Shown: positions 4,401 to 57,589 of the stretch, piece by piece
Numbering within the stretch: position 1 is the stretch's first letter
How the letters are laid out: every line of letters begins with the position of its first letter
Source: Dromaius novaehollandiae
Lineage: Eukaryota
DNA: 64,000 nucleotides
Assembly (NCBI RefSeq): GCF_036370855.1
Contig: NC_088098.1
Location: forward strand, 199,991,336-200,055,335
Direction: 5' to 3'
Notes under the pieces: generated by a model
Told to the model about the DNA's origin: nothing
Seen by the model: the letters and a program-made list of their open reading frames with translations, nothing else
The model's database searches: none
Made by a program: the position numbers and the translations under genes

Positions 4401-6159
4401 ACTAGCTTGTTCTTGGGGAACTAAACATGTTCATTGGAATGTAAATATAAGTCTTTAAGTTTACATTATGTTTAAGAAACCAAAGTGAGACTAGTCAGCT
4501 GTTGAATAACTCTGTGTTCAGTACATACTTGAATAATACAAAATTGCAGCTTGTCAAAGTGAATTAAATGAAGACAAGAGATTGATGTTCATCGTACTAA
4601 AGATGCAGAGATTTGCACTCATCTAACAGAATTATTTTACTTGTATTATTTGTTCTGCTACTTATGAATAATGGAATATTTTAAAACGTTTTTATACTGC
4701 TGTAGTTTCTGCAGGAGCTAGTCATGGACCAAAACCAACTCCTATGGTATGGGATATCACCATGTAATTAAAGAGCAAAATTAAGATAACCTGCTTATAG
4801 GTTACGCCACAATTTGTCTTGGAGCCTGGTATTTTAGAAGAATTTTTGAACAGCAGAAGCAGCTTTCTAGGTATACAAAAGAGAAACATTCCCAAGCTTT
4901 GGTTGACAACTGTCTTAAGTAGGACACCTCAACATTTCACTTATCAGTGGGTCTGACTCCCCAGCCCCATCCCATTCTGGGAGTGCTGCCTCTCTCCACC
5001 AGCTCCAGCAGTGTCAGGGACAGGGAGTGACAAGAGCTTCTCCTGGCAGCACTCGACTGGCCATACACTGAGCTAGCCCCTGTCCAGCACAGCCAACCTG
5101 CTCAGGCCACAAATTGTGCTTGGGAACCTCTTGTCGAACGCGAACTACATTAAATATACGCCACTGAATAAAATGTACAGCTTTTTTTTCAGTTCTGTAT
5201 ACCCAACAGAATACAGCTCAGAACCTGCCACAGAATAAGCTGTTTAGAAGAAGAAGGAGGCAGAAAAAAAGGCGGTGGGAGATGCCTTTCAGTCAGCACA
5301 TACATTTTTTTTTTTTAAAAAAAGGAGAGACTGTACTCCACATACACTGATGTTCTTCAGAAGCGTGTGGAGGGGTATGACTCTCCAATACGTAAGTTTT
5401 ACATCCCACCCTTGTAATGGAAGGGTGCTCTTACATTTAAGCCTCACTTACTATTTAGACCAATGACTCTCATAGGCAAAACTACAAATATCTCTGAAGC
5501 ATAACATTCTTAAGAAATCAAGACACAATCTAACTGTGGCAGCATCATGAACATATAAAAAAAATTCTTGGTCCAAAGGTTCTCTCACCTAAGATTTTCA
5601 AAATCTTGATACACTAAGCAGGCACACTTCTATACCACCACGTGTTTGACCAAAGCCTAAAGTCAAACTTATAAATTAGTTAAAATAAACAACTTGCAAA
5701 CACAAAATCATTTTAAAAAGTTGTGTTCATTATTTTTTGCTTTTGAAATTTATGAAGTTTTAGAAACATTTCAACCAATTCAGGCTGCTTTCAAAGAAGA
5801 AATATATGATCTTTCTCTCTAAACAAAGAAAAGGGCACTACAGTTAGTTATTTTAATTGAAAAGAGTCCCTCTATTTAAAAGGCTTTCGCACATTTTACA
5901 TGGCAGTAGTGTTTCTCAGTAAATATACTCTGAAACTACTTGAAGTTCTCCATTATATTCAGTCCTGCACATTTTGGCACTCTTAAGTTCACACTGAAAC
6001 GCAATCATAGGTCAGGCAGAAGAGTAGAGTAACTAAACATGGCAGGGAAAAAAAATAAGGAAAAATATTCCAGATATATCTTACATCAACTTAAAAAAAA
6101 AAAAAAAAGTAGAACAGCTTCCCTGCAAAGCTACTACTGTTTTAAACTGCAATTATAGT

Positions 6160-7260
6160 GGAACTACAGTTTTTGTGCGTTTCTCGTGCAAGTAAAGAAA
6201 AGATGGGCAAGAAAAGCTGCATGAAACACCAGTCTCTACCTGTGCAGTCTGCAAAGCCTGCGTGCAGAGAAAGCGAGGGAGGGCACCACGCGACCAAGCC
6301 CACCCAGGCCGCCCCGCTGCCAGCGCCGGCGGCCGCCCCTGGTCGCCTGCACCTTCCCGGGCGCAGCGGGAGCCCGGCCGCCGGGGAGCCGCCGGCCCCG
6401 CCGGGGGAAGGGGCGGCCAAGCTGCGCGCCAGCCCGCCGGAGCACCGGGCGCCGCCGCCCGCGCGGGCCCCGCCGGAGGGCGGCCGCTGACAGGCGGCGG
6501 CGGCGCCGCGCACTCACCCCCTCGGTCTTCACGTCCAGGATCTTCTCCACCTCGAACACGTCCTCCTCCTCCTCCTCCTCCTCGCTCTCGCCGCCGCCGC
6601 CCTCCCCGCCGGCCGCCGCCCCCGCCGCCTTGCCAGACCCGCCGCCGCCGTCTTCCTCCTCGTCTTCCTCGTCCTCGGCCGCGGCCGCCGTCTCCTCCTC
6701 TTCCGCCGCCCCCTCCAGCCTGGCCGCCGCCGCCTCAGCACCGCTCCCAGCCGCCGCCGCCATCTTGGGCCGAATTTCAAACGACAACGGGGAAAAGCGG
6801 CTGCGACATCCACCGCCGGGCGAGGAGGCGGCGGGGCGGCCGCCGCGGCCAATCGGCGCCCCGCCAGCGCGTGACGCACGAGGCGGGGCCCAAGCCTAGA
6901 GGCCTCCGTGCCCTCAGCGTGGCAGCCGCCCGCAGCGAATGAGCGGCGCTCGCGGCGGGAGGCCGCCGGGGGCTGCGGCGGGGCCGTGACAGGAGCTGGC
7001 GGCTGCGCCGGCATGGCCGGGTTGTTCCCGCCGCTGCGCTGGCCTGGGGCGGCCGTGTCTCCAGCGGGGCCCCGCGCCGCGGCTCCGGGAGGGCCTGGGG
7101 CGGCCTTCCTGGCTGCGAGCTGGCGGTGGCGGGCGGCCCGAAGCGGCGGGGCTCTGTGCTCGCGGCGGCGCTCCTTGCGCAGCAGGCTCTGAGCGGGGTT
7201 CCCTCTGGGGCCAGATACCCCATCCTGGCTGCGGCCCTTCCCCAGAGAAAGGAGGGCAGT
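6160..7260. promoter_or_regulatory. MPHOSPH8: CpG island / MPHOSPH8 promoter and 5'UTR region
   Basis: There is an abrupt shift to more than 70% GC with dense CpG and GCC/GGC repeats. It surrounds the MPHOSPH8 first exon. The long Arg/Pro/Ala-rich ORFs on both strands here are GC-composition artefacts. Confidence 0.75.
6518..6763 (-). CDS. MPHOSPH8: MPHOSPH8 coding exon 1 (ATG, poly-Ala/Glu/Gly low-complexity N-terminus, start of chromodomain)
   Basis: ATG is the reverse complement of cat at 6761-6763. The exon reads MAAAAGSGAEAAAARLEGAAEEEETAAAAEDEEDEEEDGGGGSGKAAGAAAGGEGGGGESEEEEEEEDVFEVEKILDVKTEG. Donor is ACCGAGGGG|gtgagt at 6518. It splices in frame to exon 2, giving VEKILDVKTEGGKILYKVRW. 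The upstream 'M' at 6787 in the ORF track is a TTG codon. Confidence 0.8.
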
Positions 7261-8913
7261 TACCCTAACTAGGGGTGCTGAAAGGAGGTTTTCGTATTCA
7301 TGGTATTCACCTTTCTGCGTGGAGATGAAGTGCCCAGATGAGATTGCCTTGCCCAAATAAAAAGTCAGGAGGTGCTCGATTATCCAGGTACAAAGATGAT
7401 GCTTCAGCCCCAGATGCATGAGGTTTTGGGGAAATGCACAAAAAGATATATATAACACCTCAGGAAGAGCTAGATGGTCCCACTGGGGAACAGGGTTTCT
7501 CACTAGGAAAACAACAAAAAAACCCTTTAAATGCTATACTGTTTTGCATCTTAAAATAATTGCCCATAAGCAAGCACACCTGTTTTTATGTAACACACAA
7601 GGGTGAAAGAAAAAAAAAACCCTTTTTTGTGAGAGAAAGCGAAGAAACTCCATCCTACTTGCTTGTTTAACTGCCTTTCCTAGTGCCGGAGTGTTCACCT
7701 ATCCCAGAAACAGTTTATCACAGAATGCACATCACTTAAATGAAAGTCAGGCTTTAGCATGAATGTATACACTGTAAAAGTGCCTGTACAAGATGCATCA
7801 TTACAACAGTGGAAATACAAGGTGTTACTATTTAAGTAATTAACTGCAATGAAGGAAAAAAAATTAATCCTTTATTCATATTTTTGCCAATGATCCCTTT
7901 CTAAGATGACTCCATCATCAATTGACCAAATATTTAGCAGCAGATTTAGAAGTTGTTTATAATTGTTTAAGTTAAGGGGTCTTTCTAGACTTTATGACAC
8001 CATATGACACACATTTTTTTCTTTTCAGATAAAATGCAGCATAACTCTTTCCTTTGTATTATTTACTAAAAAGAGCGAGAATCTTACAGATGTGAAAACA
8101 AGGATTCATAGCATCTTAGAATAGAGGATCTCAAGACATCTTCTTAACAACTGCCTGCACTTCACAGGATGAAGTTAATCTGCTCCACCAGTGGCAGATC
8201 CTTGCTTAGCTTCTCATGAAAACACCTATGAAGGAGACTGCACAGTTTGTTTCTCTATTATTGCCAGAACACACTTTATGTTTCCTAGGGCATGGTAACA
8301 TGCTACCTATGGTGGCTGTTGAATCTGCTGCTTCTGAGTATTTTCAAGACATTTTCAAGACAAACAACAGAAGAGTATGCTCTGTACACACTTGATCCAG
8401 CCTCAGCGCATGCAATTGTACCAAGTCCCTAGCTAAAGTTCCTCAGACCACAAAGTACCAGGCTGTGATTCTGCACAACTGCTTGATGTAGAAGTAGTAA
8501 TGTGTTCATTTAAACACCTCTGAAAAGTACCTTAAATTAAGATAAATCATGTGTACTCTGGTTTTGTTACCAGGCTTCAGTGTTTGGTCTGGTTTGAAAT
8601 AACATTAGTCAGCTTTTTCACAGGATAAAATCAGAATACTGAGTAACAGCAGAATAAAAAGGGTCTCCATTCATTCTCAAAAAACTGACCTATATATTCA
8701 CAAATTGACCTATGACTGATAAGAAAAGCGGTGCAGGAGAAAAGTAACTGTACTGCTATTTGTATTTCAAGGCATCCTGAAGGAGTTACAAAACTACCCA
8801 ATTGAAAACTCTGATATGTTACAATATTTATTAGTTCTTCCTTAAACACATTCTAATATCTGTCAAAACATACACTGCAGTATTTTTTAATTGAGTTGGT
8901 ATCACGTTACACT

Positions 8914-12282: not shown

Positions 12283-13134
12283 CTTAAGCAACAACAAAGC
12301 CATTCAGAAATCACTCGTATACCAAGTAAGCACATTAACAATATTAACCTAGTCAAAATTCATTTCAAGCAAATTCCTTCTGAAAACTATTTTTAAAGGT
12401 GCTCCGAAATGAGCATTCCTCTAACACCAGATGAACAGTAAAAGATCTCTGCTGGAATGCAGAGTCTCTATGAAATTATTAAATTTACTATTTATGTTCT
12501 TAAATACAACATTAACAGAACCAATACTATTTTAGCTGATTTCCCCTTTCAAAAATCAGAAAACTCTGATGGATTCAAATTATCTGCCAACCAGTTTGCT
12601 AATGCATATTTAGGTATTATACATCTAATTATGTAAAAAGTGAGATTCTGTTGGAATATTATACTTAGTGTAAAAAACTATAGCTTATTAGATTTTTTTT
12701 TCTTTCTAAAGCTTGAAAATTGGCAATTCTGCTGAAAAAGAAAAGAAATCTTGAAGTGCACTTTGGGAGTTGAATCTCACAGTAGTTAATCACAAGAATA
12801 TTACTTAATATCCTTCTGTCTGTGTGGCATGTGTTAATAGTTCAATGTTTAGAAATTATTTGAGAATCTTCTGTCAGAAATACAAGACAAATATGTACAT
12901 CTTCTTGATGCTTACGCTGGCAGTAATTTCCTACTTTCACATACAAACCTTAAATGAAAAATAAAGCAAAGTTAATTACTAACAGAGGGAGCAGAACATT
13001 GCTTTAAAAAAAATACTAAAAAAGAAAAGCAAGAAAGTCATGATGATGCACATACTAGGTGGCCTCTGTTGCACAAAGGTACTTGAAGATGAGGCAGCTG
13101 GAAGCCTTTACTGGATCTTGTGCATAGGGTATAC

Positions 13135-39234: not shown

Positions 39235-41401
39235 CTAGAAAATAATGATAGAAATTACAATTGTTGCATGATTAACACATATGAACAAATGATAAACGTT
39301 AAGTTTTTTCAGTGAATTCTGTTGCAAATGAATACTTGGTAGAATTTTAATTAAGGAAACACTCAGACTGAACACAAAACTCAGACTGAATTATATGAAG
39401 TTACACTGTAACATCACTGAAGTGGAATACGCAAAAGAACATTTCCACTTGTCAGATATAGTAAGGAATACAACCAAAATAGCTATTCCATCCCATGAAA
39501 ACAAATCAGAGAAAAAGGCATATGAGAAATAGTTAAATTGCTTTTGTACAACTACAAATCAAGTTCCGGATGGAGCCTGCTCATAAAAGCTCCACAAATC
39601 AGAATTCATGGTTGACTATCATTTTCATTTTGCTTGCAAGGCAATCCTTACTTATTAGAATCTGTCATATACTGTCACTCGTGCCACTATCTAGTTAGGG
39701 CAATAGAACAAGGCATTCATGTAATTTTCACAGACCAGGAGAAAAGAGGACAGTTAATTTAATAAAATTTTAGTAATTTTAATTTTAATAATATGTTTTA
39801 CTAAGTCATGGGAAAGGTGTACAAGACATAATAATTTCTGTTATCAGGAATATTTCAAGGTTACAGACACTATTAACATTTACTCTTTTATCCCAATAGG
39901 GAGCCTTCCTCCCTTTACCTTTCCCCCTTTTTACTTTGTAACTCACCAAAGACTGACATTTGGATACCTTTTTGTTTTTGCAAAGAATATCTCTAGCAGA
40001 ATCTATGCAATTCATGTTATAATTGTGATAAAAGGAAGAAATTCAAGTTTGTTCTATAGTTAGAAGTGTGATATAGCTGACAGGGCCCTAAGTGTATCTC
40101 ACTTCACCTGAGGGTATAGTTGCTTGGGCTTGGGGCTAGCTTTGATAATGCAGCTGCCACACCTTGAAAAAGCTGTGAGAAGCCCCTGCAGGGGCATGAC
40201 CCATCTTCACTCAGGAGCTGCCTTTAAGCTCAGGCTCTTGTTCTTGGTCTCTGGCTGAGCTATGTTGCAGATATGTCTGCACACGGCCTGGTACCTCCCC
40301 AATTCTGACTCTGATCCTGCAGACTTGACTTTCTGGCTTGACCTTGGACCTGCCAGACAAGACCATAGTGATGAGGTGATCTGGACTGTTGTCTGCCCCT
40401 GGTTACTGCCACAGGCAGTTACTGTCACCTGTTCTACTCTTCTTCGGCACTGTGGGACTGTGCCCTTGCTGGTGAGGTAACTGTCCTGGCCTTTCTCATC
40501 TTCACTCCTGGCTCACTTGCCCTTACAGATCAGCTTGCCCTTGCTGCTCCCCGACAGCCACTGGGTGTGAGGGCTCTGCCTGTGTGCACACTCTGCACAT
40601 GTTGTCACCTACTCCCCAGACAGTCTGAGAATTTCCCAGCTAGTCCCTGTGAAGATGAGACAGAGGACTGATTTGCAACAGAGCAACTGAACTCCTAGCC
40701 AGCTTAAAAATGAACTAATTAACACAGGAGACCTAAGGGGGAGTGGTGGTGGGAGATTTTCCTAGGCAGGTCAGCTGTGCTTACACCAACTGACAAAACA
40801 CTCTTTGTATGTTTAGACATGCTGATTAACTACTTGCACAGAGAATCCAGGCAGTCTGGGAGGCTACCCCCCCCCAACCCCCGCAGTTTGTGCTGTAGAT
40901 GTAGGAACTGACCAAGCTCTACATAGATAGATAATTTCAAACAGCTTATTGAAACTGTTCCTGCATACGTAGTAGAGGTCACACAGAACAGTCTTCTGTA
41001 CACTAATAAAATGGTTAAGATATGATTTGTATTAGTTTAAGTTGATCAATAGAAACTGATTATGTGTACGCTGGAATGGTTACTAAGGCCAGCTGGACTA
41101 TAACAATTCACCAGAAAAACAGTTTTATGCATCTCATTTGATCCAGCTGAAGACGCCATCATTAAAATTGCAAGGGAGACTCCTGTCAGCATCCATACCT
41201 TGACTGGTCTTCCTGTTCAACATGTTCAATTCCCCACCATGAGCGTTACTCTGTGCAAGAGGTCCCAATAAATTAGTTTTTTAAACTAACACTGCCTGCG
41301 ACTGGCTGCACAAAATACCCTGTCAACTTATCTAGTCAGCATGTTTAAAACTTATACAGCACAGTGCAGACCAGGAATTACCAGCAATCTGGAGAAGTTA
41401 C

Positions 41402-51929: not shown

Positions 51930-52062
51930 CTTGCGATCAAGCACAAAATGAATTACTCCACCATTTTCTTTAATGCATGTTTTCAGCCTATTCTTCTCCT
52001 GAATAGGTAAGTGCTTCACTTTAAAAAAAAACACACAGTTTGCAAAGATTGTCATCGTCCTC
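51930..52062 (-). CDS. PARP4: PARP4 first coding exon (ATG at 52055, reverse complement of cat 52053-52055)
   Basis: Acceptor ttttttaacag, then 7 nt of 5'UTR, then MTIFANCVFFFKVKHLPIQEKNRLKTCIKENGGVIHFVLDRK, followed by donor AAG|gtatgt. Human PARP4 N-terminus is MVMGIFANCIFCLKVKYLPQQQKKKLQTDIKENGGKFSFSL. The ORF-track ORF 51858-52181 extends upstream with no biological meaning. Confidence 0.8.
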
Positions 52063-54719
52063 CTGTTAAAAAAGGAAATAGGGTTTTTGGCTGAAAAAAT
52101 GTTCATTCCTATTATCCATCTAAGTAATCTCCCACCAAATATACTCTTTTCAACTCTAGAAAATACTAAAACAAATGCCATTTTATTAGCATGGTAATCA
52201 AATCCACCAAGAATAGTTCTTAATCAGTTTCATTCATTTTTTTAAATGATGTGGAAAATTTAGTGTGACCTACATTTTCAGTAAAGTCATGGCGTCAACT
52301 AATTGTCAAAGTCCTGTCTTGATCTCTTGCTGCTAATACCCATTGTTACTAATGTGGCATTATCTTATTTTAGACTAGAGCAATCTTTCTGTTCCCCTTT
52401 CAGACAATGCCACTATAAAACAACTCTCTTTTTCAAGCATGTAAACTGTTTCTTATGTTCCTACTCACGGATGTATAGAATCTAAACATACAAAAAACAA
52501 CATTCAAAAAGAACTTTGTAAAAATGATTCAGATTCAACCTAACAGAGCAGAAAACAACAGAACACGAGTTTAGTTTTAATCTGGATCTGTTTTCTGATT
52601 TAATTCACCCTGTGGCCTAGGGCAAAGGTTTACATTGGAACATGGGAGGGGTAGTGTAGCAGTGGAAGCATAGTCAGGGAGGAATGAAGGTAGGCAAACA
52701 GCTTCTTTTCTTAGCAGTGCCTGCCTACAATGTCTGTAAAACAACTTCAATGAAAATTGGCTGTGTGCTATTTGTGACAAACTACACTAAGATATGGGAG
52801 GCTGGGAAAGTTTTACTTAATCAGGAATAGAGTTTATGACAACTAAATGTAAAGACAGTGTCTGACTTAAGTCATTAAAATGTATCCTCAGTATACACCT
52901 ATTTTCCTAGCCACTTGTGTGTGCAAAGTTATTATTATTTTAAAAACTGATGGGAATGATAAAGAGAATTATAACGTGAATGAGAACACTTCACAACCAC
53001 AGAGCTCTTTATATCACTTGAGCTCCTCAGCATGTCACAGGGGATTTCCAGGAGAGCCTTCGAGTGGCACAGGAGTGGTAAGTGCAAACTAGAGGGCCTT
53101 AGCTTGGGCCCACCCTTAGCTCCCTACCTATATTTGAAGTACAGTGCTCAGTTTAGATTTCTCTGAAAGGCATTCAGATTGTACATCTCAAAACCACTTT
53201 GAGACCTTAATCAACATAGGGCAACTGGCGACAAGCAAAAGATTTGGCTTAAAACTGTATTTCTGCTCCAAGCCAAACTGTTAATGCAGACGCACCCTAC
53301 AGCAATGAGTATGAACAGGACGTATGCCTGTAAAATAAAATATTCCAGACAGAAAATTCTTTTCACTGGTAATTCTTTGGCTAACCATTGTATTGTATCG
53401 CAGCCAGAGGGTTAGTATCAATGTTACTTGTAAAGACCCTGTGTTCAACTCTTTAACTTTTCATACTTCTGGAAGAGTTACTTGGTGATAGAAATTTTTC
53501 ACCATGACTTAAGACAAAATATTTCTAACTGTGAGATGACTGGACAAAAGTGACAATCCAGAATATCTGCCTTCTCCAAATTCATCCTGGACCCACAAGA
53601 TGAGGCAGAACAAATAAGAAATTGCTCCTCGAAAAGCAAAGACAATGTGAAAGGAAAGTAATTCTTGTGCTGGCCAAAAATGCCTGACATTAAGTGCCCT
53701 CTCTTTTGGACGGGCCATTCGGAGGAAAAAAAAAGAGTTTTTTCCAACTTGATGAGAGATCCCACATGCACTGCAAATTCTGAGCAAGCCTCTACGCTCT
53801 GAATCCTAGAAATAAATATTTTCTGAACTGTAAAACTTTCAAACTTTAAAATCAGAATAGGAGATTGTTCTATTGAACCTGCGTGTTGAAAATTAATTAG
53901 CAGCTGACAGACACTTAAAACTGGTAACTGTGTTGTGGCAGCACCAGATAAGGAAGTTATTTAAAGGAAAACTGCTGACAATCACTGCTGGCTTAATTCC
54001 TACAATTTTATTTTGTGTTGGTGAAGATCATTAGGGCCTATTTGCCTCAAAGGAATTGTGAGCTTGTACTTGCTGATCAAACTGTGAGCTTGGGACCACC
54101 ACGAGCAACAGATTACATTTTTAGCATGTAGAGGGAGCGGTGACACCAGAGGGAGCTGGGGGATGAAGTTTTTATCACCCCAAAATAGTCCATGAATAAT
54201 ATGGAGTCCTGTAAGGCCTTCACCATACAGAAATATTGAAAACAAATCTCTACCGTGCTTTCCTAATAAAGATGTCAAAGGAATTCAACGTGATGCTGTG
54301 CCTTAAAAAGGCATAGGTAGAAATCCTCATCTTTCCTATCACAGTAGCTTCATGCTGTTAAGGCAGAACCCAGTTTGAGGACAATCATGTAGAAAATATA
54401 TTCGTAACTGGCAAAGTGAAAGTGCAAGGAAGATGATGGAAAGTTTAGGAGAAAGAACCAGGTGGAATTACAGAAAGAAGAAAGAGCTGAAATTAAAATG
54501 AGTATTCGGCCATTGGAAGGGCTGACACGGGTCCACACAGCCTAGTGCACAGTTCTGTAGCTGCCCACGAGAGGAAAGGACAAAACCAGGTCACAACCTG
54601 CAACGCACCGTGAGCTTTTAGTAAACGGCTAATTTTCGAAGAGAAAAAAAAAGAAGTTCAGCGAGACGGAGCAGACCTAAAACGCAAAATGTCAGAAAGA
54701 CAAGGCGTGCTCTTCGCCC

Positions 54720-54800
54720 GTTTGTCACTTACTGCGGCTATTTAAAGATTAAAACGGCGTAAGAAACGGCTGCAGAAGCAAACAGCATCCCCCAGAAAAC
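54720..54800 (-). other. PARP4: candidate 3' end of PARP4 non-coding exon 1 (donor CA|gtaagt near 54733)
   Basis: The first coding exon begins at an acceptor 7 nt before the ATG, so an upstream non-coding exon is required. Minus-strand TAGCCGCA|gtaagtgac sits at the edge of the CpG island. The TSS was not determined. Confidence 0.3.
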
Positions 54801-55269
54801 GCCACCCTGGAAGGCCTGCGGGCCGCTCACTACCCGGCAGTTTCCTCGTACACCTCTCACTGCAGTTGTCAACGGCTACTGCGCGGAAGCGGCCGTTAAC
54901 CTGCACGGTTTTCCCGGCCGCCTTGGGGTGCCGGGGCGCGGCGAGCTGCGCGCCGCGGCTCCGGGGCGACGCCTGCGAGCCGCGATCCCACAGGGCCGCG
55001 AGCGGCGACAGCGGAGAGAGCCGGGGGGAAAAGCGAGCCGCTTCTACCTGCAAGGCGGCCCCGGGAACGAGGAGCAGCGCGAGGTGCCGGAAAGAAACCG
55101 CCGCAGACCGATCGCCGCCGCCTCCAACAGCCCCGAGCAGGAACAGGAGCGGGGGGCGGTAGCTACCGTTGAAGCCCATCAACGGCCTTTGGCTGCTGAG
55201 GCTCGTGGGAGCTGTAGTTCGAACGCTGCAGGGCCCCTCGCAGCTGGGCTGGGAGGGCGGAGGCTTGGG

Positions 55270-55289
55270 ACTACAACTCCCAGCATGCC
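55270..55289 (+). promoter_or_regulatory. ZNF143/THAP11 (SBS-type) motif ACTACAACTCCCAGCATGCC
   Basis: There is a near-exact match to the consensus ACTACAAYTCCCAGCAATGC, which is typical of CpG-island and bidirectional promoters. A partial ACTACA-like element on the opposite strand lies at 55213-55222 (gctgtagttc). Confidence 0.55.
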
Positions 55290-57202
55290 TCGCGCGGGGC
55301 GTTGTTCAGCCTGTGGCGCTAGGAGGCTGTGCGATGGCGGCAGGTTTGTAAGAGCCGGGGAGGGCGGGCGGCCGGAGCGGTGCGGCGGCGGCGAGCGGCG
55401 GTGCGAGGAGCGGGGCTCTCGCTGCCGCCTCGGCACCTGCGAGGGGCAGGGGTCGAAGCTGCCCCGGGGCTGGGGGGCGGCGGGGGCCGGCCGCCCTCGG
55501 GCCGCGCTCTGTGAGGGCGTCGCGGTGCTGGGGGCTGGTGTGTCCCCGGGGGAAGGGCGATGCCGCCTGGCCTTGGCGCCCCGGCTCTGCTTCGGAGCAG
55601 GGAGAAAGGCTGCGCTCGTTTCCTCGCCGCCGAGGAGGGCCCTGCCGGCTTTTGGGGGGTCCTTCCCCCTCGCCCACCTTCTCTCCCCTGGAAGGTTACA
55701 GTTCAGCTTCGGCGCTGCCAGCCCTTTTGGTCTGTGCAGAGGAGCTGCTGCCCTTAAGCTTTAGGAGAAGCTTTAAATAGACCGCAATTTTATCAGACAG
55801 TTCATATAAATTTTAGGAGGGTGTTTTTTGGGGGGTCTCAAAACCTGGTGGGCAATGATCAATGAGTTTTCGGTGTGTTGTCTATCTTCTGGCATCTGCT
55901 TGTGAACTGACAGGCTGCTCTGAAGGGATCTCCAAAAGGTCACACGAAAAAAAGTGTAAATTCAGCAGGTTTAAATTTGCTTATGCAGGAATCTGCACCT
56001 TGCAGGGGAAGTTCCAGTGGTGTCTGAAAACAGAATGATGTTGAAAACCATTCGTTTAAGGGAATCTTGCTGTCTCCCCTAGTTATAGGCCAGTCTGCTG
56101 CTTCTCCTGTTGTTGCCTCTGTGAAACTTCGGTTAAAAGCTTAAGCGCTTCTACAGCTTCTGCATATGTGCAGAATTAAACAAGAGCTGGCATGGACTGA
56201 TCTCTTGGGAATGAGGAAACTTTAAAATGCTGCTTCCTGATCAGCAGGACTGTTGATGAATGGTTTCCTATAGTTGAATGTCCTTTGTTCCCTACCCCTT
56301 CTTCTGTCTGTATTCCTTAGGATGTGCCATATGCACAGGCAGAGAGTTAGTTGTTCTCGGACTTGCTTGAGGTAGCAGTGCTGAGTGGCCAGACTGTTGT
56401 TGCCATATGAGCAGTGGCGGTTCTGCCTCTGGCCTTAGTGGGGACATCACACCAGGCTTCTTAGCTACCTGAATTCATTACTGCTTCATGAAGCTTGTGG
56501 CAATTTGATCATCACTGATGCTTTTATAGTCTTCAAACTCTTTCTGAGTTAAAAAAAAAAAAAAAAAAGAAAGACAGGAGGAGGACGAGGTTAACAGGCA
56601 GCATCGTTGTAGAGTTCCCATGAGAAACCAAGGAACGCATGAAAATGATGATAAGTGCTGCACTGACATATGCACAGTAAAATGATTGTATGTAGACAGA
56701 CTTTAAAAATTATACTAATATGAAGGTCCTGTGAGGGAAGTATCTTTTTCAGCTCCTCAAAAGATTTCTCTCTCCTTTTGTTGTGAATGCTTTCTAAAAG
56801 CTCTGAAGCTGTCCCTGTGCTATCAAATAGAATATTGTGTATTGCTTTATAACATTTGAGATGTTATTTATTTGAATGCAGTTAATATTAAAGTTTAAAA
56901 GTTAGATTGTGTTGACTTCCTGTATGTTCGTTACTAGTGGTCCAAATTGATTTTATTGCCTAGGGAAAAATACATAGTGACTCAGTTTTATAAATATATT
57001 GCTGGGTATAAGAGAATAAATTTCTGTTTGAGGATCTATTATTGTAGACTTCTCATTCTGTTTATTTGTTTAATTTCTAGGCGCGAAAAGATAATCATCC
57101 ATACCAAACACTTGAAACTTTTTGATAATTTTACTATTTTAACAATAGATAATGTTATATTATTATGTTATTTGCTGATGCAACATTAAATTGGAATACA
57201 AG

Positions 57203-57589
57203 ATGCCAACTGTTGAAGATCTAAGTAGTGAACCGAACTTCATTGCACCTTGGATGTCTGACACTTCCCGTGCTGGAGTCTTATTAGATCCTAATTTTCC
57301 TGGGTTGAAAAGCAATGAAGAACGTCTGTTATCTGGACATGAAAACATCACAGCTTTCCCTGAAGTGCTGCATCTTTCAAACAGCTGCTCTATAAGTGAG
57401 GACTCCTTGTGTGAAGAAGAAATACTGGAATCCAGCAGCTCTTGTAGACTTCAGCAACATACCACTGAAACATCTTTTCCAGCAGCAGCATATAATTTAG
57501 AAGCCTCTGAAACAGAGTTTGTCCGTGGTGAAGTGGATGGTCAGAATAAATCAGACTACAATGATCCACTCTTACAAAAGCTTGAACAG
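57203..57589 (+). CDS. CENPJ: CENPJ first coding exon
   Basis: ATG at 57203 then MPTVEDLSSEPNFIAPWMSDTSRAGVLLDPNFPGL...DPLLQKLEQ, followed by donor CAG|gtaaaa. Human CENPJ has [36 protein letters not shown]...DPLFKKLEQ. The ORF-track start at 57191 is a TTG codon. Confidence 0.8.

Follow-up and report, generated by a model that had tools for sequence, protein, structure and literature searches.

A divergently oriented pair of SBS2/M4-class motifs, candidate ZNF143/THAP11 sites, in the CpG island between PARP4 and CENPJ of the emu

What occupies the centre of the CpG island that separates PARP4 from CENPJ in the emu (Dromaius novaehollandiae), and does it serve one gene or both? We addressed this question in a stretch of 64,000 nucleotides from contig NC_088098.1 (assembly GCF_036370855.1, forward-strand positions 199,991,336 to 200,055,335), which is called the window below and is numbered from its first letter. 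A preliminary description of this DNA had placed a canonical ZNF143/THAP11 motif at the centre of a bidirectional PARP4/CENPJ promoter and had predicted cell-cycle-linked co-regulation of the two genes by ZNF143, HCFC1 and THAP11. Our analysis led us to a pair of sites, which are very probably divergently oriented promoter motifs of the class known as SBS2, M4 or THAP11-associated motif (TAM), located at the centre of a CpG island common to PARP4 and CENPJ. The elements concerned are listed here, SBS standing for the 18-bp Staf/ZNF143 binding site and TBS for the THAP11-binding site.

55268..55294, plus strand: site A, a complete 27-bp SBS2 element facing CENPJ; RRACTAYRN followed by YWCCCRNMATSCMYYRCR, 27 of 27 positions.
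55194..55220, minus strand: site B, GAACTACAGCTCCCACGAGCCTCAGCA, facing PARP4; exact M4/TBS match, SBS 14 of 18.
55221..55267, no strand: spacer between sites A and B; GC-rich, 47 bp, poorly conserved.
54701..55700, no strand: CpG island of the divergent promoter; GC 0.70, CpG observed/expected 0.93, 113 CpG.

The 20-mer from which the preliminary description had started, ACTACAACTCCCAGCATGCC, is indeed present at 55270-55289 on the plus strand and occurs only once in the window. Its agreement with the consensus had been given as 18 of 20 positions. An ungapped comparison yields 17/20, and the consensus then used, CCCAGCAATGC, was mis-remembered with one extra A. When the published consensuses are applied, the match to the ZNF143 site is perfect. 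Site A is composed of GG (the RR of the consensus), the THAP11/ACTACA module ACTACAA and the SBS CTCCCAGCATGCCTCGCG. Its 5' part (55268-55276) fits RRACTAYRN at 9/9 positions (consensus from PMC3082894), the SBS (55277-55294) fits the degenerate Staf/ZNF143 consensus YWCCCRNMATSCMYYRCR at 18/18 positions (PMC5006282), and the layout of ACTACAN plus SBS is that of the 25-bp SBS2 of Ngondo-Mbongo et al. (PMC3627581). The ACTACA-like half-site that had been noticed on the opposite strand about 55 bp away proved to be an exact match: the core of site B, ACTACAGCTCCCA (55206-55218, minus strand, with a GA prefix), corresponds without mismatch to M4 (ACTAYRNNNCCCR) and to the TBS (ACTACANNTCCCA). 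The SBS part of this site, CTCCCACGAGCCTCAGCA, agrees with YWCCCRNMATSCMYYRCR at 14/18 positions and is weaker in its 3' half. Both sites share CCCR at SBS positions 3-6 and C at position 12 (CTCCCAGCATGC, CTCCCACGAGCC). The two ACTACA modules are arranged back to back, their starts being 52 bp apart, and apart from sites A and B neither strand of the 64 kb contains an exact M4/TBS match.

A formal scan with a position weight matrix (PWM), which the preliminary description had proposed as a check, was performed on both strands with a 22-column log-odds matrix derived from 34 motif instances under human THAP11 peaks from chromatin immunoprecipitation sequencing (ChIP-seq; PMC6944463 S1 Table). 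Site A reached 31.6 bits and site B 22.8 bits of a possible maximum of 32.8, while the bound human sites scored 12.7-29.1 bits (median 20.7) upon leave-one-out evaluation. Site A ranks above all 34 of them and site B above their median; the next best position in the window, at 12.1 bits, lies below the weakest bound human site (12.7). Neither site fell below threshold, both stand far above the rest of the window, and the matrix from ChIP-bound sites agrees with the identification of the motif as a ZNF143 SBS. By every sequence-level criterion tested, sites A and B belong to the SBS2/M4/TAM class.

Chance expectation was estimated with dinucleotide-preserving shuffles, 300 of the window and 5000 of the CpG island. 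No shuffle contained a match to ACTACAACTCCCAGCATGCC at three or fewer mismatches. The numbers expected per 64-kb window were 0.003 for the SBS and 0.04 for the TBS; the 5000 island shuffles gave neither an SBS nor a TBS, and M4 appeared in 0.4% of them (expectation 0.004) and twice in none. Two TBS matches together were seen in none of the 300 window or 5000 island shuffles. In the other CpG island of the window (6151-7300, MPHOSPH8-like) no SBS, M4 or TBS match was found. These figures bear on the reading of the motif as functionless chance or repeat-derived sequence, for example the relic of a transposable element carrying SBS2. Such elements exist, since MLT1J retroelements have spread SBS2 copies in mammals (PMC3627581). 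However, there is no further copy in the window and no repeat structure around the motif, scans with Rfam and for tandem and local repeats returned nothing relevant, and the pair has a syntenic position in nine bird loci, where it is the motifs that are conserved. On the grounds of shuffles, synteny and the lack of another copy or repeat, a chance match and a transposon relic were both rejected, and we rate an origin of this kind as extremely improbable.

Is the pair maintained in other birds? Orthologous promoters were recovered from contigs containing the CENPJ exon-2 open reading frame (ORF) and spurious ORFs read through the GC-rich promoter. The nine bird loci fall into two diverged groups, L004, L035 and L036 being nearer the window and L029 and L031-L034 grouping with hawfinch. 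Both motifs were found in the same back-to-back arrangement in 9/9 loci, hawfinch included. Pairwise identity amounts to 0.97 for the M4 core of site B (11/13 columns invariant) and to 0.92 for that of site A; CCCR at SBS positions 3-6 and C12 are invariant or nearly so. Outside M4, positions 7-12 of the site A SBS (GCATGC) are conserved at 0.96 and positions 13-18 at 0.72, with an invariant terminal GCG. The spacer, in contrast, has a pairwise identity of 0.50 with 3/48 alignment columns invariant, and insertions and deletions within it shift the distance from ACTA to ACTA between 41 and 53 bp among the loci. High identity of the motifs next to a decayed, indel-bearing spacer argues for selection on the two motifs and not on the whole region, and the pattern resembles a classic phylogenetic footprint at sites A and B. 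Both motifs can further be read from the translated promoter pseudo-ORFs of about six additional species, where they appear, for instance, as HAGSCS or MLGVVV (site A) and as SNYSSQEPQ or TTAPKSL (site B).

The distribution of conservation within the sites is also pertinent to which factors read them. The cores might be recognized by proteins other than ZNF143, namely THAP11/HCFC1 alone, Ikaros or NF-kB1 on CCCRRNRNRC, or RBPJ on TTCCCA, and ZNF143 might be dispensable. In keeping with this idea, the M4 cores are better conserved (0.92-0.97) than SBS positions 13-18 (0.72), the 3' half of the site B SBS is poor, M4 is bound by THAP11/HCF-1, Ikaros and NFKB1 (PMC5006282), and RBPJ binds SBS1 and SBS2 in vitro (PMC3627581). 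On the other hand, the strong conservation of GCATGC and the invariance of the terminal GCG in site A concern positions of the SBS outside M4, and THAP11 sites have been reported genome-wide to be always linked to an overlapping ZNF143 site (PMC3627581). Sites A and B read CTCCCA instead of the TTCCCA preferred by RBPJ, and an RBPJ site was rejected for that reason. The conservation outside M4 answers the proposal in part, and we regard a role of the cores without ZNF143 as quite unlikely. An SBS of an RNA polymerase III type-3 promoter was likewise considered and rejected: the context of a proximal sequence element (PSE) and TATA box is lacking, and the site lies in a CpG island flanked by two protein-coding genes.

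The identity of these two genes was established from their coding exons.

51930..52062, minus strand: first coding exon of PARP4, start of the BRCT domain; acceptor AG 52064-52063, ATG 52055-52053, donor after 51930.
57203..57589, plus strand: first coding exon of CENPJ; ATG 57203, donor GT 57590.

Pfam domains on the minus strand and CENPJ homologues on the plus strand bore out the statement that PARP4 and CENPJ flank the motif. The minus-strand exons encode, in this order, BRCT (52.0 kb; first coding exon MTIFANCVFFFKVKHLP..., E = 1.9e-5), PARP catalytic (~34.3 kb) and VWA (~25.9 kb) domains, and because this order matches the domain order of PARP4 the gene was identified as such. For the plus-strand exon together with the next exon 18 homologues were retrieved, the sole named one being 'centromere protein J-like'. 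Exon 57203-57589 has 62-78% identity with exons of loci bearing PF25779 and PF07202; in the orthologous CENPJ loci these domains (Tubulin-bind_CPAP and Tcp10_C, respectively) are encoded further downstream. PARP4 and CENPJ are thus arranged head to head with start codons 5.1 kb apart and one 1-kb CpG island between them, at the centre of which the motif pair resides. The window as a whole has the composition of vertebrate genomic DNA (GC 37.5%, CpG observed/expected 0.28) and contains two CpG islands, at 6151-7300 and 54701-55700. In hawfinch (GCA_965649865.1) the motif pair likewise lies between the second exons of PARP4 and CENPJ, which are encoded on opposite strands, and the counterpart of the PARP4 exon 51930-52062 (64% identity) is found on the same side of the promoter. 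An 'unnamed protein product' of 240 aa in hawfinch OZ287903.1 (P0023; L031 6001-18338) starts in a CpG-island ORF spanning both motifs, and its gene model skips the PARP4 BRCT exon (exon 2) at 12304-12429; the 5' end of PARP4 has probably been mis-annotated there.

Some features of the wider neighbourhood may be added. The second CpG island (6151-7300; GC 0.74, CpG observed/expected 0.95) contains an acidic exon 1 on the minus strand, and a chromodomain exon follows downstream of it at 2074-2346 (Pfam Chromo, E = 3e-11). These two exons suggest MPHOSPH8, which would follow PARP4 in tandem on its downstream side. Inside a PARP4 intron, the stretch at 40100-40900 has a raised GC content (~0.5-0.56) but is nearly free of CpG and contains no long ORF; it is probably an ancient repeat. 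In goat the gene order is ATP12A, RNF17, CENPJ, PARP4, MPHOSPH8 (PMC11874128), and since CENPJ, PARP4 and MPHOSPH8 are neighbours there as well, the neighbourhood seen in the window seems to be old.

Besides sites A and B, three further stretches of the island attracted attention on account of their conservation.

55322..55351, plus strand: conserved block GGGAGGCTGTGCGATGGCGGCAG/GTTTGTAA; 27 of 30 columns invariant in the nine loci.
55174..55186, no strand: conserved block GCCCATCAACGG, just beyond site B towards PARP4; identity 0.92, 9 of 13 columns invariant.
54739..54756, minus strand: AT-rich, TATA-like block TTTTAATCTTTAAATAGC, conserved in five loci within an otherwise GC-rich island.

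The block at 55322-55351 is the best-conserved stretch of the promoter and in every locus follows downstream of the site A ACTACA at a distance of 63-65 bp. It may combine a YY1-like core (GATGGCGGC) with the splice donor of a CENPJ exon 1 that would be short and non-coding and would end at 55343. The ATG at 55334, for which locus L036 has ATA, could start a short upstream ORF. When the conserved exon-1 block ATGGCGGCAGGTTTGTAA was searched for in metagenome DNA, 20 loci were obtained, all of them chance matches and none an orthologue. Directly 3' of site A, at 55295-55305, a GC box (GGGGCGG) is kept in 7/9 loci, the window itself reading GGGGCGTTG. Within GCCCATCAACGG, CAACGG is reminiscent of a Myb site, although two passerine loci do not keep it intact. 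As donors of PARP4 exon 1, CAG/GTAGAA (~55051) and GCA/GTAAGT (~54735) were considered and rejected because they are not conserved in passerines.

Which of the two genes, then, is the target? Published human data point to CENPJ. In HEK-293 cells, THAP11 ChIP-seq peak 1149 covers hg19 chr13:25496815-25497369 and is bound by wild-type and F80L THAP11 alike (PMC6944463 S1 Table). The peak maximum and the motif GCGTCACTGGGAGTTGTAGTTT (hg19 chr13:25497080-25497102) are 7 bp apart, the CENPJ transcription start site (TSS) is 74 bp off, and five motifs occur within 1 kb on either side (PMC6944463). The 14-bp core of this human motif, CTGGGAGTTGTAGT, is the reverse complement of the site A core, with the proviso that the table prints motifs in one orientation. 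CENPJ is also among the THAP11-bound genes in the categories 'G2/M transition' and 'cell division' (PMC6944463). PARP4 did not occur among the listed rows of a table that is cut short. The evidence is stronger for CENPJ, to whose exon-1 block site A keeps a fixed distance and at whose human promoter the THAP11 peak lies. PARP4 may plausibly be a further target: it is the gene that site B points to, the core of site B is the better conserved of the two, and the SBS is a bidirectional element. The enrichment of the motif in bidirectional promoters, to which the preliminary description had appealed, is on record: Anno et al. (2011) found the SBS 2.4-fold enriched there, SBS mutations altered both directions in 17/22 cases, and one SBS suffices for bidirectional activity (PMC3082894).

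A mechanism along the following lines can be envisaged. ZNF143 (Staf) would bind the 18-bp SBS, strongly at site A and probably more weakly at site B, and the ACTACA module would recruit THAP11 with its co-factor HCFC1. Whether ZNF143 and THAP11 occupy SBS2 exclusively (PMC3627581) or as a complex with HCF-1 (Parker 2014 and Vinckevicius 2015, summarised in PMC7154149) is debated. Together these factors may keep the island active and stimulate initiation by RNA polymerase II, and rapid degradation experiments have shown that ZNF143 stimulates initiation (PMC11754675). The conserved YY1-like element and the GC box just downstream would probably assist. Site A, 40-75 bp upstream of the end of the candidate CENPJ exon 1, would most directly serve CENPJ; site B faces PARP4 and would probably contribute to both genes, since an SBS acts in both directions. 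Our comparisons establish the two motifs, how far they stand out statistically, the order of the genes and the selective conservation of the sites; from these we infer factor binding in emu, the TSS positions, the co-regulation of PARP4 and the linkage to the cell cycle. The predicted ZNF143/HCFC1/THAP11-driven co-regulation is backed in one half, for CENPJ, by the human THAP11 peak and the G2/M listing, and stays a prediction for PARP4.

A number of observations weigh against a shared promoter built on this motif pair. In the motifs themselves, positions 13-15 of the site A SBS read GGG instead of CTC in the passerine loci, locus L004 reads ACTACC, and the SBS of site B is devoid of ATGC. With respect to transcript starts, each of the 17 ORFs homologous to the CENPJ N terminus continues into the intron, and for this reason they are genomic and not spliced sequences; the hawfinch model that crosses the island has the look of an ab initio prediction and was of no use as transcript evidence. 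In human, CENPJ is the sole gene named at peak 1149, without PARP4 (PMC6944463), and its mRNA level did not respond to the THAP11 F80L mutation (log2 fold change 0.14, adjusted P 0.48; PMC6944463). Neither Cenpj nor Parp4 is named in the supplements examined of a mouse ZNF143-depletion study. Finally, the TATA-like block TTTTAATCTTTAAATAGC, about 460 bp from site B towards PARP4, could represent a separate PARP4 core promoter.

Several of these points fit the alternative that the pair serves the CENPJ promoter only. PARP4 would then be transcribed from a separate core promoter at a distance of several hundred bp and would be merely adjacent. The distance of 63-65 bp between site A and the CENPJ exon-1 block, the human peak assigned to CENPJ and the TATA-like block on the PARP4 strand would all be expected under such an arrangement. 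However, it leaves unaccounted for that site B points to PARP4 and carries the better conserved core (0.97), and the SBS was bidirectional in most tested cases (PMC3082894). Moreover, even a PARP4 TSS at ~54.7 kb would be less than 1 kb away from CENPJ exon 1 and hence within the usual definition of a bidirectional promoter. Indirect hints at closely spaced starts are the one 1-kb CpG island and the candidate CENPJ exon-1 donor at 55343. Exclusive service to CENPJ is in our opinion a serious but less likely alternative, and we continue to favour a motif pair at the centre of an island common to both genes.

The reading can be extended further back in time. The back-to-back SBS2 pair might be an ancient amniote module that couples a vault PARP (PARP4) to a centriole-duplication factor (CENPJ), in which case the human CENPJ site CTGGGAGTTGTAGT would be a relic left behind by a rearrangement that separated the genes. 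We take human PARP4 and CENPJ to be separated by ATP12A and RNF17; on that basis, a rearrangement with a breakpoint in the promoter or beside it would have taken place in the human lineage. If true, the locus would offer a natural experiment on the splitting of a shared ZNF143/THAP11 promoter; we consider the proposal unlikely and put it forward tentatively.

The element itself is real, was correctly interpreted and is ordinary, an unsurprising extension of a known class. The motif class, its role in promoters and its enrichment in divergent promoters are already well known, and the orthologous human site is contained in a published peak table. We found no earlier description of the element in birds, of its back-to-back pairing or of the conservation of the pair in the literature searched, which yielded only incidental co-mentions of ZNF143 with CENPJ and none of PARP4, CENPJ and a bidirectional promoter together. 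What is gained is a confident annotation of a conserved cis-element for the avian PARP4/CENPJ promoter, and the ZNF143/THAP11 promoter code defined in mammals appears to be used unchanged at CENPJ in birds. This should be useful for promoter annotation and for the design of reporter or CRISPR experiments. It opens no new question, because the motif class and its enrichment in divergent CpG islands are textbook-level knowledge.

Three known systems lend themselves to comparison. The mammalian SBS2, also described as TAM, Ronin-binding motif or M4 (ACTAYRNNNCCCR), is the same composite of ACTACAN followed by the 18-bp SBS. As in mammals, the emu sites conform exactly to the M4 consensus, lie in a CpG island near a first exon and are conserved across species; unlike the mammalian sites, they are candidate binding sites in a bird genome and occur as two copies back to back, 41-53 bp apart. 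The human CENPJ THAP11 site (PMC6944463, peak 1149) belongs to the orthologous gene, has the same 14-bp core CTGGGAGTTGTAGT and lies within ~75 bp of the annotated TSS. It differs in its flank, GCGTCAC without the ATGC of the SBS, and in that CENPJ is the only gene listed. The third comparison is with human BUB1B and the SBS bidirectional promoters of Anno et al. (2011), which likewise contain two SBS with RRACTACAN motifs (PMC3082894). PARP4/CENPJ, which has no head-to-head arrangement in human, is for that reason absent from the 13 promoters tested in that study. The promoters of Anno et al. are backed by ChIP and dual-luciferase assays, and in them the SBS is sufficient for transcription in both directions; as a further point of likeness, one target gene of the emu locus, CENPJ, is a cell-division gene.

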